DNA of 64,000 nt, from assembly GCA_041674925.1 (NCBI GenBank), contig JBAYUW010000003.1, forward strand, positions 2,042 to 66,041, given 5' to 3'. The notes under the pieces were generated by a model. The model made no database searches and had not been told where the DNA came from. It worked only from the letters and a program-made list of their open reading frames with translations. The stretch is from Minisyncoccota bacterium (GTDB lineage: Bacteria > Patescibacteriota > Minisyncoccia > Phycocordibacterales > GWA1-40-21). Shown one piece after another: positions 28,584-34,901 of the stretch (position 1 is the first letter of the stretch; each line of letters starts with the position of its first letter). Made by a program: the position numbers and the translations under genes.

Positions 28584-28654
28584 AGCGGGGTAGAGTAACA
28601 GTAATTCGCGAGGCTCATAACCTTGAGATGGCCGTGCGAATCGGCCCCCCGCAA
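28584..28654 (+). tRNA. initiator-like tRNA (anticodon CAU) with non-canonical D and T loops
   Basis: Acceptor AGCGGGG/CCCCGCA-A: bases 2-7 and the 3' strand are identical to E. coli tRNA-fMet, with a 1:72 mismatch. A11:U24 in the D-stem. Anticodon loop CTCATAA. The D-loop lacks G18G19 and the T-loop is TGCGAAT. Confidence 0.5.
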
Positions 28655-28688
28655 CAAGGAAAGATTGGCGCCAAGGTGGCGCTTTTCT

Positions 28689-28800: not shown

Positions 28801-29748
28801 ATGTTAACAAAAAGACAAGAAGCAGAGTTAGTCACGGCTATACAGGGACGGGGAGAGGTGCCTCTAAAATTTGCTTATTTAGGAGAAGGAGCAAAAAATT
28901 GGGACTCAATTGCCAAGGAAAGAGTATCCACTTCCGGAGGAATTAACTCGATTGAAGCTAATCTACTAAAAAAGAGAATGGATGATTTTATTTCAACTTT
29001 AGATAAAGGTAAAAGTGTTAATCTTGTTGATATTGGTTGTGGTAATGGTTTGCCAGTAGTGCCAATCTTACAAAGACTCCAAGAGAAGAATATCCCCTTT
29101 ACTTACGTACCAATGGACATAAGTGGGGAGATGATTGATCTTGCCCTAAATACCGTAAGATCTAAATTTTCTGATGTCGTTTGCAAACCATTTCAGATGG
29201 ATTTTGAATTGGGGCAATTTTCAGATCTTATGTATGAGATCAAAAAAGACGGCTCGGTGAATTTAATGGTGTTTTTGGGTAGTACATTGGGTAATCATTC
29301 AGATTTAAGTAGGGTTTTAACAAATTTTAGAGACTCGATGACGTCGAAGGATTATCTAATTGTTGGTGTAGAGCTTACAAATATTGCAAAGGTAAATAAA
29401 ATTATTCCTCATTATGAAAACTCTGCTGCGAAGGCTCTTGTAAGTCATACTTTATCATATTTAAATATTTCAGATAAATCTTTTGGATATGAGGTGTTAT
29501 GGAATGATAAAAATTCTCAAATCGAGATGAGGGCAGTTTTCAATAAAGATGTAAAAGCTGAAATTGCTGGTTATAGTTTTGTTATCGAAAAAGACGAAAG
29601 TATCCTATTAGCAAAATCAATTAAATTTACTGAGTATGCGATAACTAAATTATTCTCTGATGTTGGTTTAAGGACCGAATTACTCACTACTTCTGAAGAC
29701 CGTGGTTATGTTCTTACTATGGTCCAGCCAACAAGATATAGTATATAA
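28801..29748 (+). CDS. class I SAM-dependent methyltransferase (EgtD/Methyltransf_33-like)
   Basis: VDIGCGNGLPVVPIL is a motif I Gly-rich loop. TYVPMDISGEMIDLAL resembles the Y.P.DIS block of histidine-specific methyltransferases. Confidence 0.5.
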   Translation: MLTKRQEAELVTAIQGRGEVPLKFAYLGEGAKNWDSIAKERVSTSGGINSIEANLLKKRMDDFISTLDKGKSVNLVDIGCGNGLPVVPILQRLQEKNIPFTYVPMDISGEMIDLALNTVRSKFSDVVCKPFQMDFELGQFSDLMYEIKKDGSVNLMVFLGSTLGNHSDLSRVLTNFRDSMTSKDYLIVGVELTNIAKVNKIIPHYENSAAKALVSHTLSYLNISDKSFGYEVLWNDKNSQIEMRAVFNKDVKAEIAGYSFVIEKDESILLAKSIKFTEYAITKLFSDVGLRTELLTTSEDRGYVLTMVQPTRYSI

Positions 29749-29931
29749 AGATGGCTACATAATACTTTATGATAATTTACCTAGTGTAATTACCTGATTT
29801 AATTGCCGTCTATCATTTAGCACTAAAAACACTTTGAAATTATTTAATTTTATGTATAATGGTATAGATCTCAAAAAGGATGGTCTATTCCTGAAGAGGA
29901 AGGTGGCTGTCTTCGAGAGATTTGAAAAAAT

Positions 29932-30206
29932 GCGGGCGTAGCTCAACGGTAGAGCACTCCCCTGTAGACGTGCAGCTTTCGGTCGAGAGACTGATTGAAA
30001 CTCTCTGGGATAACGGTGAAGGCTAAGTTTCATTTAGAAATATGCGAACACCGTGGGAACCCCTAGATTCGCTAGGGGGCGCCGTAGAGACTAGATACCG
30101 GAGTATCCTCATCCGAAAGGGAAGGATAAAGATATAGTCCATGCCATTACGAAAGTAATGAATTAGTGCACGGGAGAGGCCGTGGGGTCAGCACCCATCG
30201 CCCGCG
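29932..30206 (+). tRNA. tRNA-Asp(GUC)-like gene interrupted by a 203-nt group I intron (exons 29932-29965 and 30169-30206)
   Basis: 5' exon GCGGGCG-TA-GCTC-AACGGTA-GAGC-A-CTCCC-CTGT. 3' exon CAC-GGGAG-AGGCC-GTGGG-GTCAGCA-CCCAT-CGCCCGC-G. Joined, the anticodon loop is CTGTCAC, the same as the E. coli tRNA-Asp anticodon loop (E. coli 5'-flanking stem differs: CCTGC vs CTCCC here); discriminator G. The T-loop GTCAGCA is non-canonical. Confidence 0.55.
29966..30168 (+). ncRNA. group I intron (small, IC3-like) in the tRNA-Asp anticodon loop
   Basis: P7 GACTA...TAGTC, with the S-element AAGATATAGTCC and an R-like AGAGACTAGA. P9 hairpin CCATTAC-GAAA-GTAATG (GNRA loop) lies 8 nt before the terminal G. 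The internal guide GTGCAG can pair with the 5' exon CTGT (P1, U-G) and with the 3' exon CAC (P10). Confidence 0.6.
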
Positions 30207-30214
30207 CAAGAAAA

Positions 30215-30236
30215 AGTCGCTTTCGAGCGACTTTTT
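30215..30236 (+). terminator. rho-independent terminator AGTCGCT-TTCG-AGCGACT + T5 after the tRNA
   Basis: 7-bp stem, a UUCG tetraloop and a T-run, 9 nt after the tRNA 3' end. Confidence 0.6.
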
Positions 30237-30361
30237 GCGTGGGTGAGGAAGTGATGTTATCACTTCCGTATGGGTGTTGACGCCGGAGCGGGACCCAAGT
30301 CAGCAGACTTGGGAGCGAGGCGTGCCCAGCAAAAATTTTGTGACGACAAAATTTTATGCGA

Positions 30362-30410
30362 GGGAGAGTCCATCGCCCGCGCAAAATAAAGCCCTGAAAA
30401 GGGCTTTTTT
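30362..30410 (+). repeat. partial duplicate of the tRNA-Asp 3'-exon end (GGGAGAG...CCATCGCCCGCGCAA, T-arm deleted) plus a second terminator (AAGCCC-TGAAAA-GGGCTT + T6)
   Basis: Nucleotides 30362-30384 repeat the ends of 30172-30208 with an internal deletion of GCCGTGGGGTCAGCACC. Terminator at 30389-30410. Confidence 0.55.
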
Positions 30411-30439
30411 GCTGGGCGAAAAAGTGGTATATTGGTGGT

Positions 30440-31006
30440 ATGAAAAAAGCATTAATCATACATGGTTGGGATGGAAATCCAGACGAACCATTGCATCAAT
30501 ATTTACGAGGTGAACTAGAAGCAGTTGGTTATAAAGTCGAGATTCCAAACATGCCAAATCCCGCTGCCCCCATCATTAAAGATTGGGTAAATAAAATGGC
30601 GAGTGTTTTTGATGAGAAAACCGATTTAATTATCGGACACAGTATTGGTTGTCAGGCGGTTTTAAGATTTATCGAAACTCTCGATTCTAGCATTTCAATT
30701 CCAAAAGTTATCTTAATCGCGCCGTGGATGAAATTAGATATGAATACAATTGAGGAAGAAGGGGAAGAGGTAATTGAGATCGCTCGACCATGGATGGAAA
30801 CGCCGATTAATTTTGAAAAGATAAAGAAAACAGTGAAAAGTGTAATCGCTATATTTTCTGACAATGATAGCTATGTGCCATTAGACCAAGAAGAGTATTT
30901 TAAAACGAAGCTGGATGCGATGACTTTCATTGAACACAATCAAGGTCATTTTACTATTTCGGATAATTTTAAAGGATTACAGACAGATTTTAAAAAACTT
31001 TTATAG
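30440..31006 (+). CDS. serine hydrolase, YdeN/RBBP9 (Ser_hydrolase) family
   Basis: IIHGWDGNPDEP start. GHSIGC nucleophile elbow (GxSxG). Alignable to B. subtilis YdeN over the N-terminal about 80 aa. Confidence 0.6.
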   Translation: MKKALIIHGWDGNPDEPLHQYLRGELEAVGYKVEIPNMPNPAAPIIKDWVNKMASVFDEKTDLIIGHSIGCQAVLRFIETLDSSISIPKVILIAPWMKLDMNTIEEEGEEVIEIARPWMETPINFEKIKKTVKSVIAIFSDNDSYVPLDQEEYFKTKLDAMTFIEHNQGHFTISDNFKGLQTDFKKLL

Positions 31007-32769: not shown

Positions 32770-32814
32770 TAGTAAAGGCATAAAAATACCCCATTACCCG
32801 AGGGCTTTGTCTAC

Positions 32815-32843
32815 TTGTAAGAATATAGCACATATGCTATACT
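32815..32843 (+). promoter_or_regulatory. candidate sigma70-type promoter TTGTAA-N17-TATACT in a 495-nt non-coding stretch
   Basis: Hexamers at 32815-32820 and 32838-32843, followed by about 150 nt with hairpins before a small hydrophobic ORF at 32999. Confidence 0.35.
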
Positions 32844-33264
32844 GCCTGTGTAAGAGAAACAGTTGTTTGAAAAGTGAATAAAGAACAGCCCTCCCGCTGA
32901 GGTTCTAAGTCCTTGGGATTTTAGCGAGGGGGAGTGCGTGATTTATCGCGCGTACGTGGTTGTCGAACCACCAATTCTCGCCCTAAACTTCATTTACCAT
33001 GGGAATATTTAAAGTCTTAGGACTAGTCTTAGCGATTATCATGATTCGTTACCTCTTGCCTGATATCTTTCGGGCGTTCGAGGACACTCTTCTTCTGTTC
33101 TTTGATACTCTCCAGACTCTTCTCGTCCGAGGACAGTCTGGACCAAACAGTGCCAGTGTGATCCAACTGCTCCCACACTAGGATCACCTCACAGAACCGC
33201 CCGCCATCCCAAGCGCGCGGTTTTTGTAATTAAAGACCTTATTATTTATGTTATACTTTATAAT

Positions 33265-33601: not shown

Positions 33602-33855
33602 GCCATTGTAGCTCAGTTGGTAGAGCACGTCATTGGTGGGTCGTAACCCCTGCCCATTTAGGTGGTAACGCTTAGATGAATCCCGAATAACGGTTAATAT
33701 CCTAATCTGGACAAGACCGTGGCGAATCATGTTTTGTGATTTAGCCCGAACGACTGACAAGGGTTTCCAATTTGGAAAAAGATACAGTCTAGTCCTCCCG
33801 CAAGGAGAGGTGTAAACGAATGACGAGGTCATCGGTTCAATCCCGATCAATGGCT
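33602..33855 (+). tRNA. tRNA-Thr(GGU) interrupted by a 181-nt group I intron (exons 33602-33637 and 33819-33855; CCA encoded at 33856-33858)
   Basis: 5' exon GCCATTG-TA-GCTC-AGTTGGTA-GAGC-A-CGTCA-TTGGT. 3' exon AA-TGACG-AGGTC-ATCGG-TTCAATC-CCGAT-CAATGGC-T. Joined, the loop is TTGGTAA, as in E. coli tRNA-Thr(GGU). The splice position is inferred from the terminal G and the loop length. Confidence 0.6.
33638..33818 (+). ncRNA. group I intron in the tRNA-Thr(GGU) anticodon loop (between positions 36 and 37)
   Basis: P7 GACTG...CAGTC, with AAAAAGATACAGTCTAGTCC (S-like) and CGAACGACTGACAAGGG (R-like). P9 hairpin CTCCC-GCAA-GGAGAG (GNRA loop). Terminal G at 33818. P1 pairing is not obvious by eye. 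Confidence 0.55.
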
Positions 33856-33857
33856 CC

Positions 33858-34901
33858 ATGTACAAACGCTTGTTAAAGCCGATTTTATTTAGGTTTAATC
33901 CAGAAAAAATTCACAATCTTTTTGTCTATGTCGGCCGATTTATGGGATCTTTTGGTCTCGGACGTTTTTTACTTTCACTATTATACGGCTATCGTGGTAA
34001 AGATATTTCCAAAACGGTGGATGGAGTTTATTACAAAACCCCCATTCTTTTATCAGCCGGCTTTGATTATGACGGACATTTGACGCAAGTGTTGCCTTCA
34101 CTTTCTTTTGGTGGGGTGGAGGTGGGTTCAGTGACGGCCAAACCTTGCGCTGGTAATCCCAAACCACGTCTGACTAGATTGCCTTTTAGTAAAAGTATTT
34201 TGGTTAATAAAGGCTTGAAAAATGATGGCGTGGACATTATTTTAACCCGCTTACAAAAAAAGAAAAAAATTAAAGATTTTGTAATTGGAATCAGTTTTGC
34301 CCGAACCAATGAAAAAGCAGCTTCGACGGTCGAGGCGGGGATTGCTGATTATGTTTACAGTTTAAAGAAAATTGTGGAAAGTAATCTTGGTGATTACTAT
34401 ACTATTAATATTTCTTGTCCTAATACTTTCAATGGCGAACCGTTTACGACGCCAGATTTATTAGAAAAACTTTTTATTGAAGTTGATAAAATACCGCGTA
34501 CGAAACCTTTATATGTAAAAATGCCCCTCAACGTGACAGATAATGTGTTTGTACAACTGCTCGGAGTTTTAAATCGCCACAACGCCCAAGGAGTGATTCT
34601 CGGCAACTTGCAAAAAGATTATACAACGATTGATAAGCGCGATTATATTCCGCAAAAATATGAAGGCGGTTTATCTGGTAAACCATGTGAAAATCGCTCC
34701 AATGAACTTATCACCTTAACCAAAAAAGAGTATGCTGATCGATTTACGGTGATTGGCTGTGGCGGAGTCTTTTCTTATGAAGACGCCAAGAAGAAATTTG
34801 ATCTCGGCGCGGATTTAATCCACATGATTACCGGGATGATTTACGAAGGCCCGGGTCTGATTAAAAGCATTTGCCAAGGTCTGGAAAGTGAAATAAGATA
34901 A
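33858..34901 (+). CDS. pyrD: dihydroorotate dehydrogenase (class 2, quinone-dependent-like)
   Basis: N-terminal MYKRLLKPILFRFNPEKIHNL resembles E. coli PyrD. GGVEVGSVTAKPCAGNPKPRL and the active-site ISCPNT. The start codon overlaps the tRNA CCA. Confidence 0.8.
   Translation: MYKRLLKPILFRFNPEKIHNLFVYVGRFMGSFGLGRFLLSLLYGYRGKDISKTVDGVYYKTPILLSAGFDYDGHLTQVLPSLSFGGVEVGSVTAKPCAGNPKPRLTRLPFSKSILVNKGLKNDGVDIILTRLQKKKKIKDFVIGISFARTNEKAASTVEAGIADYVYSLKKIVESNLGDYYTINISCPNTFNGEPFTTPDLLEKLFIEVDKIPRTKPLYVKMPLNVTDNVFVQLLGVLNRHNAQGVILGNLQKDYTTIDKRDYIPQKYEGGLSGKPCENRSNELITLTKKEYADRFTVIGCGGVFSYEDAKKKFDLGADLIHMITGMIYEGPGLIKSICQGLESEIR

Follow-up and report, generated by a model that had tools for sequence, protein, structure and literature searches.

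The window analysed here, a stretch of 64,000 nucleotides (nt) from a Minisyncoccota bacterium (contig JBAYUW010000003.1), carries a transfer RNA gene for aspartate, tRNA-Asp(GUC), whose anticodon loop is interrupted by a 203-nt group I intron without an open reading frame (ORF). The parts of the gene, the helices and terminal base of its intron (P1 to P9, omega-G) and the hairpin that follows are listed below.

29932-29965, + strand: 5′ exon of tRNA-Asp(GUC), 34 nt, GCGGGCG-TA-GCTC-AACGGTA-GAGC-A-CTCCC-CTGT, made up of the acceptor 5′ strand, the D arm with its short AACGGTA loop, the anticodon stem 5′ strand and loop nt 32-35 (CUGU)
29966-30168, + strand: group I intron, 203 nt, no ORF
29962-29966/29971-29975: P1, exon CUGU plus A paired with U plus GCAG, with a U-G wobble at 29965/29972
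29979-29984/29989-29994: P2, GAGA loop
30003-30008/30098-30103: P3
30013-30018/30049-30054: P4
30022-30023/30044-30045: P5
30027-30031/30037-30041: P5a
30055-30056/30082-30083: P6
30060-30066/30072-30078: P6a
30087, 30089-30093/30135-30140: P7, GACTA (30089-30093) with TAGTC (30135-30139)
30104-30109/30123-30128: P8
30145-30150/30155-30160: P9, CATTAC-GAAA-GTAATG, GAAA loop
30168: omega-G, the last intron base
30169-30206, + strand: 3′ exon of tRNA-Asp, 38 nt, CAC-GGGAG-AGGCC-GTGGG-GTCAGCA-CCCAT-CGCCCGC-G, made up of loop nt 36-38 (CAC), the anticodon stem 3′ strand, the variable loop, the T arm, the acceptor 3′ strand and the discriminator G; CCA is not encoded
30211-30236, + strand: terminator-like hairpin directly 3′ of tRNA-Asp, AAAAAGTCGCT-TTCG-AGCGACTTTTT, an inverted repeat whose 11-nt arms are 100% complementary

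Boundaries and identity of the split gene

When the two exons are joined, they form a 72-nt cloverleaf that ARAGORN calls tRNA-Asp(gtc). The same 72-nt gene, uninterrupted and equal to the two exons in sequence, is present in five metagenomic loci (L051, L054, L056, L062 and L067), which amount to four distinct sequences, as L051 and L054 are one and the same. One of these, L062, shares synteny with the window, the coding DNA being ~75% identical, and the alignment of the two stops exactly at 29965 and resumes at 30169, with flanks that are 100% and 97% identical, the 5′ exon being 100% identical to L062 8971-9006. ARAGORN likewise reads the uninterrupted genes in L051, L062 and L065 as Asp(gtc). 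For tRNA-Asp, the identity elements G73, C38 and G10 are established in E. coli and yeast, and the pair G3:U70 is the determinant of alanine identity. The window tRNA, as read from its sequence, carries G73, C38 and G10, has a G-C pair at 3:70 and is without the alanine determinant. Together, the intron-less alleles, the P1 pairing and these identity elements place the intron at 29966-30168, between nt 35 and 36, and judged by these elements the gene is tRNA-Asp(GUC) rather than tRNA-Ala.

The body of this tRNA is unusual. Its T loop reads GUCAGCA, with G54 and G58 where the canonical loop (U54-U55-C56-R57-A58) has U54 and A58, and its D loop is short, at 7 nt; these oddities lie at 30183-30199 and 29941-29955, respectively. 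Identical exons occur with an intron in L015, L019, L020 and L040, the 3′ exon among them, and without one in L051, L054, L056, L062 and L067. The odd T loop and short D loop are thus kept in at least nine related loci, which argues that the T loop is a conserved lineage trait and not a sign of decay; other Paceibacteria-like relatives have the canonical GGTTCGAGTCC loop. From the sequences, the change looks like a lineage-specific alteration of the tRNA elbow. The split gene is missed by ARAGORN both at default settings and with intron search, a failure that we attribute to the unusual T and D loops because ARAGORN -i detects the same intron in relatives with a canonical T loop. Elsewhere in the window, an initiator-type tRNA-Met gene (28584-28655, + strand) also has an odd T loop, UGCGAAU, in which position 55 is G, and it scores low with the tRNA model (46.6 bits).

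The intron itself carries the core segments AGAGACTAGA at 30086-30095 and AAGATATAGTCC at 30129-30140. A sensitive Rfam scan of 901 nt (29700-30600) matched the group I family RF00028 to 29941-30161 with E = 2.2e-11 and 49.3 bits against a gathering score of 50. A scan of the window at the gathering thresholds returned six plain tRNAs only and missed both the split tRNA-Asp and the intron, the latter because its score is 0.7 bit below the gathering score; homologous introns score 31.6-52 bits with the same model.

Much of this had been anticipated in an earlier note made from the DNA letters alone, which proposed a tRNA-Asp-like gene with a group I intron of 203 nt inserted at 35/36 of the anticodon. 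The position of the split is borne out by the fold of the joined exons as Asp and by the intron-less alleles, which show the predicted junction; the nature of the intron is borne out by the RF00028 match, by covariation in 45 homologues and by homology to published introns. All sequence elements that it named lie where it placed them, among them P1 with its U-G wobble, P7, the GAAA-capped P9 and the terminal G, and the T loop that it called non-canonical is so, and is conserved across related loci. Two checks that it proposed gave more qualified answers. The cmsearch run with RF00028 gave the expected match, yet at a score below the gathering score, and ARAGORN with intron detection did not find the split gene, although it called the joined exons Asp(gtc). 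One of its claims does not hold: a P10 helix between CAC and GUG would need G 29972, a base engaged in P1 as the wobble partner of the exon's last U, so that a P10 of at most 2 bp is compatible with P1.

Conservation of the fold, splicing and competing explanations

The intron is widely shared within the phylum. An exact 19-mer across the 5′ splice site, CCTGTAGACGTGCAGCTTT, recurs in 48 species-representative genomes, all of them, by record title, metagenome-assembled genomes of Patescibacteria, with hosts that include Paceibacterota, Kaiserbacteria, Yonathbacteria and Nomurabacteria. Each of the 48 has tRNA-Asp split likewise, by an intron of 194-269 nt, and the 3′ junction is G/CACG in all loci of this set that are long enough to judge. 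To assess the fold, P1-P9 were drawn on the window sequence, and pairs were counted on an alignment of 45 Patescibacteria introns. Across 57 pairs in 11 helices, 94.1% of cells were paired, as against 38-46% in controls whose partners were slid by 1-3 columns, and none of 500 column shuffles reached the observed pairing values. Two-sided, compensatory changes were present in 29 of the 57 pairs, spread over P2, P3, P4, P5a, P6a, P8 and P9; at the closing pair of P4, for example, A-U and U-A are exchanged in 17 of the 45 sequences. The core positions that are invariant in the 45 homologues are all intact in the window intron, and both the splice-site U 29965, which pairs with G 29972, and the terminal G 30168 are invariant.

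Our analysis suggests how such a gene would be expressed, following the standard chemistry of the group I family. [quoted passage not shown] A free guanosine held in P7 would then attack after U 29965, the terminal G 30168 would occupy the same site, and the freed 5′ exon would attack after G 30168. Ligation would join ...CCCCUGU to CACGGGAG..., restoring the anticodon loop CUGUCAC. In tRNA introns such as those of the Anabaena and Azoarcus systems, the exons are aligned by the anticodon stem, and in the window gene, too, they are probably held together by that stem and not by a real P10.

Taken together, these observations make it very probable (about 0.93) that the locus holds a functional tRNA-Asp(GUC) gene of Patescibacteria (Paceibacteria-like), into which a group I ribozyme of 203 nt without an ORF is inserted between U35 and C36. 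We infer that the window copy splices from its anatomy, its conserved fold, its boundaries and its homology to a self-splicing class. Several points weigh against this assignment, starting with the fact that splicing of this copy is itself a deduction. P1 has just 4-5 bp and P10 is essentially absent, and the RF00028 score is under the curated threshold. P1, P5, P6 and P7 are invariant in the alignment, and hence neutral on the fold, the invariance of P1 being partly built in by a search pattern that fixed it. The tRNA body departs from the canonical form at G54, G58 and the D loop, and ARAGORN does not recognise the split gene. In addition, the analysis covers 64 kb of the genome, and a second, uninterrupted tRNA-Asp gene could lie elsewhere.

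These last points are also what a decaying pseudogene would look like, with a dead intron or a non-functional tRNA of aberrant T and D loops while another tRNA-Asp gene serves the cell. The ARAGORN failure, the Rfam score just below threshold, the limited genome coverage and the already degraded state of the LAGLIDADG gene flanking the tRNA (see below) would fit such a history. The same odd exons are, however, identical in at least nine independent loci, with and without the intron, which indicates purifying selection, and every core position invariant in 45 homologues is intact in the window. Furthermore, intron-bearing and intron-less copies of the same anticodon are rarely found together in one genome (PMC13011429). 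We therefore regard a pseudogene as improbable.

Far less plausible still is that both splice sites lie 2 nt further upstream, so that the 5′ exon ends with U33 and the intron with G 30166; the gene would then be a tRNA-Ala(UGC) with a 33/34 intron. This frame also offers U at -1 and G at omega, ARAGORN reads its product as tRNA-Ala(tgc), and annotation tools make the same call for related genes (Table 1 of PMC13011429), a known trap of mis-annotation. We rejected it since the intron-less alleles read CTGTCAC and not CTTGCAC, CCCCU has no partner in the intron with which a P1 could form, while CUGU has GCAG, and the gene has a discriminator G (G73) with G-C, not G-U, at 3:70; the in vitro product of a related gene was moreover sequenced as 35/36 (PMC13011429). 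It is equally hard to credit that the 203 nt belong to another RNA class, such as a transfer-messenger RNA (tmRNA) or RNase P fragment or a riboswitch, lying between two tRNA-like halves. At E ≤10, Rfam gives RF00028 alone for 29941-30161, the remaining matches being terminator-like noise; ARAGORN made no tmRNA call, no Rfam match to tmRNA or RNase P RNA was obtained at E ≤10 within 29700-30600, and the covariation fits a group I fold.

Genes and structured elements around tRNA-Asp

The split gene is flanked on both sides by features of their own interest, and a second interrupted tRNA lies downstream.

29807-29938, + strand: C-terminal remnant of a LAGLIDADG homing-endonuclease gene, 44 codons, identified from its translation, with its stop TAG formed by nt 8-10 of tRNA-Asp
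30207-30420, core 30233-30386: structured insertion of ~150-200 nt, directly 3′ of tRNA-Asp
33602-33877, intron 33638-33818, + strand: tRNA-Thr(GGU) gene that holds at position 36/37 a divergent group I intron of 181 nt, called Thr(ggt) i(37,181) by ARAGORN -i

The 130 nt 5′ of tRNA-Asp translate to a peptide ending in NCRLSFSTKNTLKLFNFMYNGIDLKKDGLFLKRKVAVFERFEKMRA before the stop codon, which is 54.5% identical to an intact 231-aa ORF in L065 (tblastn, E 6e-8); that ORF in turn matches Pfam PF14528, LAGLIDADG_3, at 1.3e-15. Intact ORFs of ~225 aa stand there in most relatives (for example L065:823-1518 and L040:6365-7042), whether the tRNA gene is split or not, and the protein family counts 1562 members at E ≤ 1e-10. 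By tblastn, 36 of the 48 genome loci with the intron have a LAGLIDADG gene beside tRNA-Asp on the same strand. With two exceptions, it stops 28-130 nt short of the intron, and full-length copies without stop codons are present in 23 of the 48. When seven loci were sampled from the protein side, the gene was always followed by tRNA-Asp(gtc), which had the 35/36 intron in four and no intron in three. What the LAGLIDADG gene accompanies is thus the 5′ end of tRNA-Asp, and not in every case the intron, and its target may be the tRNA 5′ flank instead of the intron site. By analogy with trans homing (PMC2790892), co-conversion could still carry along an intron 34 nt away. The window intron, having no endonuclease gene of its own and a LAGLIDADG neighbour cut to a 44-codon stump, is probably immobile now and vertically inherited. 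Between tRNA-Met and tRNA-Asp, the window also has a gene for a histidine-specific methyltransferase-like protein dependent on S-adenosylmethionine (28801-29748, + strand, 315 aa, Pfam Methyltransf_33, 6.5e-37). The two tRNA genes are adjacent in L062, L056 and L067, so that the methyltransferase gene seems to have been inserted where relatives have the LAGLIDADG gene.

The element on the 3′ side is organised around copies and complements of the tRNA. It starts with a 5′ strand complementary to the acceptor 3′ strand of tRNA-Asp, followed by a 9-bp hairpin, then by ATGGGTGTTGAC, the antisense of the T arm GTCAGCACCCAT, and by two more hairpins, all three hairpins covarying; it ends with CGAGGGAGAGTCCATCGCCCGCG, a copy of the tRNA 3′ half from which 16 nt of the T arm are missing, and a second terminator. 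Shuffled versions of 30233-30386 fold far less well than the region itself (z = -7.3). L019 and L040, both of which are without the element, have a single trailer similar to the trailer and terminator that follow the second 3′-half copy in the window; we therefore read the element as an insertion flanked by a direct repeat of ~20 nt. Copies are also found in L015, L012, L062, L051, L052, L056, L065 and L067, with ~25 further in L001-L078, and the host tRNAs comprise Asp, Met, initiator Met, Thr(CGU), Thr(GGU) and Gln. Among eight close variants, 85.7% of cells are paired as against ~40% in slid controls, 18 pairs show two-sided changes, and the closing helix varies to G-U only, which points to an RNA of the + strand. 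The match between element and host extends to the antisense segments: in L012 both of them match its own, different tRNA-Asp perfectly, while the remainder resembles the window copy. More generally, exact antisense of at least 11 nt to the gene's own T-arm region lies within 170 nt downstream of 18 out of 155 tRNA genes in the loci analysed, as against 0 of 914 non-cognate pairings.

RNAalifold predicts five helices from the 11 better-conserved copies, with 30 of 40 pairs compensated, including one helix that joins the antisense "guide" to the direct repeat after an invariant GUGACC. A covariance model built from these copies found 33 copies in 464 kb. With the window copy added, 27 of the 34 start within 120 nt of a tRNA on the same strand, and four more are second units of tandem arrays. 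The window copy aligns with this model end to end, at a weak 14.1 bits (E 6.5e-4 locally), and by its sequence it is a diverged member of a family of elements that follow Patescibacteria tRNA genes. The element has no Rfam family at E ≤10 in the window or at ≤0.5 in nine related loci, its two conserved core patterns have no match in viral contigs, and inspection by eye gave no hammerhead core, group II domain V, or motif of tmRNA or signal recognition particle type. No second, distant tRNA fragment is present within 8 kb, which argues against a large island, and the neighbouring ORFs encode a methyltransferase and a serine hydrolase, while neither an integrase nor a transposase gene adjoins the element. 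A look-up of a 188-aa protein encoded downstream gave a 2.5-kb contig that does not include the tRNA, and an identical neighbouring gene is present in the run SRR6484325. A remnant of classical integrase attL/attR sites would fit the direct repeat; we rejected it on account of the compensatory changes, the G-U pairs confined to the + strand and the host-matched antisense segments. The downstream pseudo 3′ half as an alternative 3′ exon for the intron was dropped as well, given that intron-less alleles carry the same element. Candidate explanations for the element itself are a non-autonomous integrative element that brings along a tRNA 3′ end as a replacement, a guide RNA that matches its target and serves a recombinase, and a tRNA-like RNA processed through the acceptor-like helix.

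The second interrupted tRNA, 3.4 kb away, had also been pointed out in the earlier note, and it is real: ARAGORN -i identifies it as tRNA-Thr(GGU), and intron-less alleles with identical exons are present in L062 and L020. Its intron scores just 22.2 bits with RF00028, in keeping with the published description of this type (PMC13011429). What the note took for an unusual density of tRNA introns is ordinary for the phylum; two within 3.4 kb are not unusual in Patescibacteria, for which both the 35/36 site and a high density have been published (PMC13011429). Also in this part of the window, 425 nt at 32803-33227 are 94.6% identical to L062, as against ~75% in the surrounding coding DNA. A promoter-like site lies in this stretch, together with a leader of ~150 nt rich in hairpins and a hydrophobic ORF of 60 aa (32999-33181); it has no Pfam family and no convincing Rfam match.

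It is possible, though in our view rather doubtful, that the tRNA-Asp locus has two further layers: the intron may spread by hitch-hiking on the LAGLIDADG gene that overlaps the first 10 nt of tRNA-Asp, and the 3′ elements may form an undescribed family of structured, RNA-like insertions, each with antisense segments to the T arm and acceptor 3′ strand of its own host tRNA and with a direct repeat of that tRNA's 3′ part at its end, perhaps a target-matched, guide-bearing mobile or processing element. In the literature searched, we found neither hitch-hiking on a LAGLIDADG gene nor a 3′-element layer described at tRNA-Asp, nor any description matching the element. If the LAGLIDADG gene does drive spread, the published view of these introns as largely immobile for want of internal endonuclease genes would need revising. 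The elements that follow tRNA genes and carry antisense segments matched to their hosts could be small RNAs of a new class, mobile or regulatory, in reduced genomes. The LAGLIDADG gene and the 3′-end element family are probably more interesting leads than the intron itself.

Comparison with known systems

The arrangement of an ORF-less intron beside an endonuclease gene has parallels in trans or collaborative homing by free-standing endonucleases, such as T4 mobE with the I-TevIII intron (PMC2790892) and cyanophage F-CphI beside psbA (PMC6083498; reviewed in PMC3984707). In these systems, as at tRNA-Asp, an ORF-less group I intron is accompanied by an endonuclease gene next to the interrupted gene, and the window ORF ends 28 nt before the intron insertion site. 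The tRNA-Asp locus differs in that it is known from sequence alone, that its LAGLIDADG gene also stands beside intron-less tRNA-Asp genes and that the window gene is a remnant. Flanking endonuclease genes are not mentioned in PMC13011429.

The classical bacterial tRNA introns, namely those of Anabaena/Nostoc tRNA-Leu(UAA) at 34/35, Azoarcus tRNA-Ile and Agrobacterium tRNA-Arg, are likewise small ORF-less ribozymes of ~200-250 nt in the anticodon loop, and they share with the window intron a U-G-closed P1, GNRA-capped P2 and P9 and a AGAGACUA...GAUAUAGUC core. They differ from it in insertion position and host tRNA. The Azoarcus and Agrobacterium introns are of subgroup IC3. The tRNA introns of Patescibacteria differ from the classical ones in structural subgroup and phylogenetic clade, having been placed in subgroup IA (PMC13011429).

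The closest relatives of the window intron are found in a recently described class. The number of tRNA group I intron types was raised from 4 to 21 by Williams (bioRxiv 10.1101/2020.01.27.920355), and introns at 35/36 of tRNA-Asp(GUC) were then reported in Patescibacteria by Nakagawa et al. (mSystems 2026, PMC13011429; bioRxiv 10.1101/2025.07.03.662931). According to the latter study, the 35/36 site is enriched in this phylum, ~40% of whose genomes carry group I introns, intron-bearing and intron-less copies of one anticodon seldom coexist in a genome, tools mis-call such genes as Thr or as Ala 33/34, and the "divergent" introns of tRNA-Thr(GGU) at 36/37 are missed by RF00028 (PMC13011429). 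In the same work the tRNA-Asp intron of GCA_001029755.1 spliced itself precisely in vitro, with the ligated tRNA sequenced (35/36) and an omega-G-to-C control (PMC13011429). Patescibacteria thus keep self-splicing introns in essential tRNA genes at 35/36, and their genomes seem to lack tRNA-Asp because standard annotation tools miss or mis-call these introns. The window example is useful in this respect, since it combines the intron with a T loop that defeats ARAGORN, and since intron-less genes with identical exons fix its boundaries without experiment.

The window gene has the insertion typical of the 35/36 class, in a G-U-N anticodon with the junction CTGT/CAC and, judged by synteny with the loci that share the 5′ junction 19-mer, in a Patescibacteria genome. 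It agrees with the published introns of tRNA-Asp(GUC) and tRNA-Asn(GUU) in its host tRNA-Asp, the site between U35 and C36, U at -1, omega-G, the lack of an ORF and the phylum, its 203 nt fall within their size range of 184-256 nt, and, like them, it is missed or mis-called by standard tools. Compared with the sequences consulted in the supplement of PMC13011429, the window intron is 81% identical to the tRNA-Asp intron of GCA_023898525.1, which opens with the same AGACGTGCAGCTTT, 62% identical to the assayed GCA_001029755.1 intron, 76% to a tRNA-Asn intron and 74% to a tRNA-Tyr intron. It also departs from the published set: the window copy is not among the three tRNA-Asp introns listed there, none of the 95 complete genomes of that study has both an Asp 35/36 and a Thr 36/37 intron whereas the window has both, and its host tRNA differs from the class in its non-canonical T loop and short D loop. 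The identification of the window intron is correct and not new, as it belongs to a described class with a member whose self-splicing has been proven experimentally.

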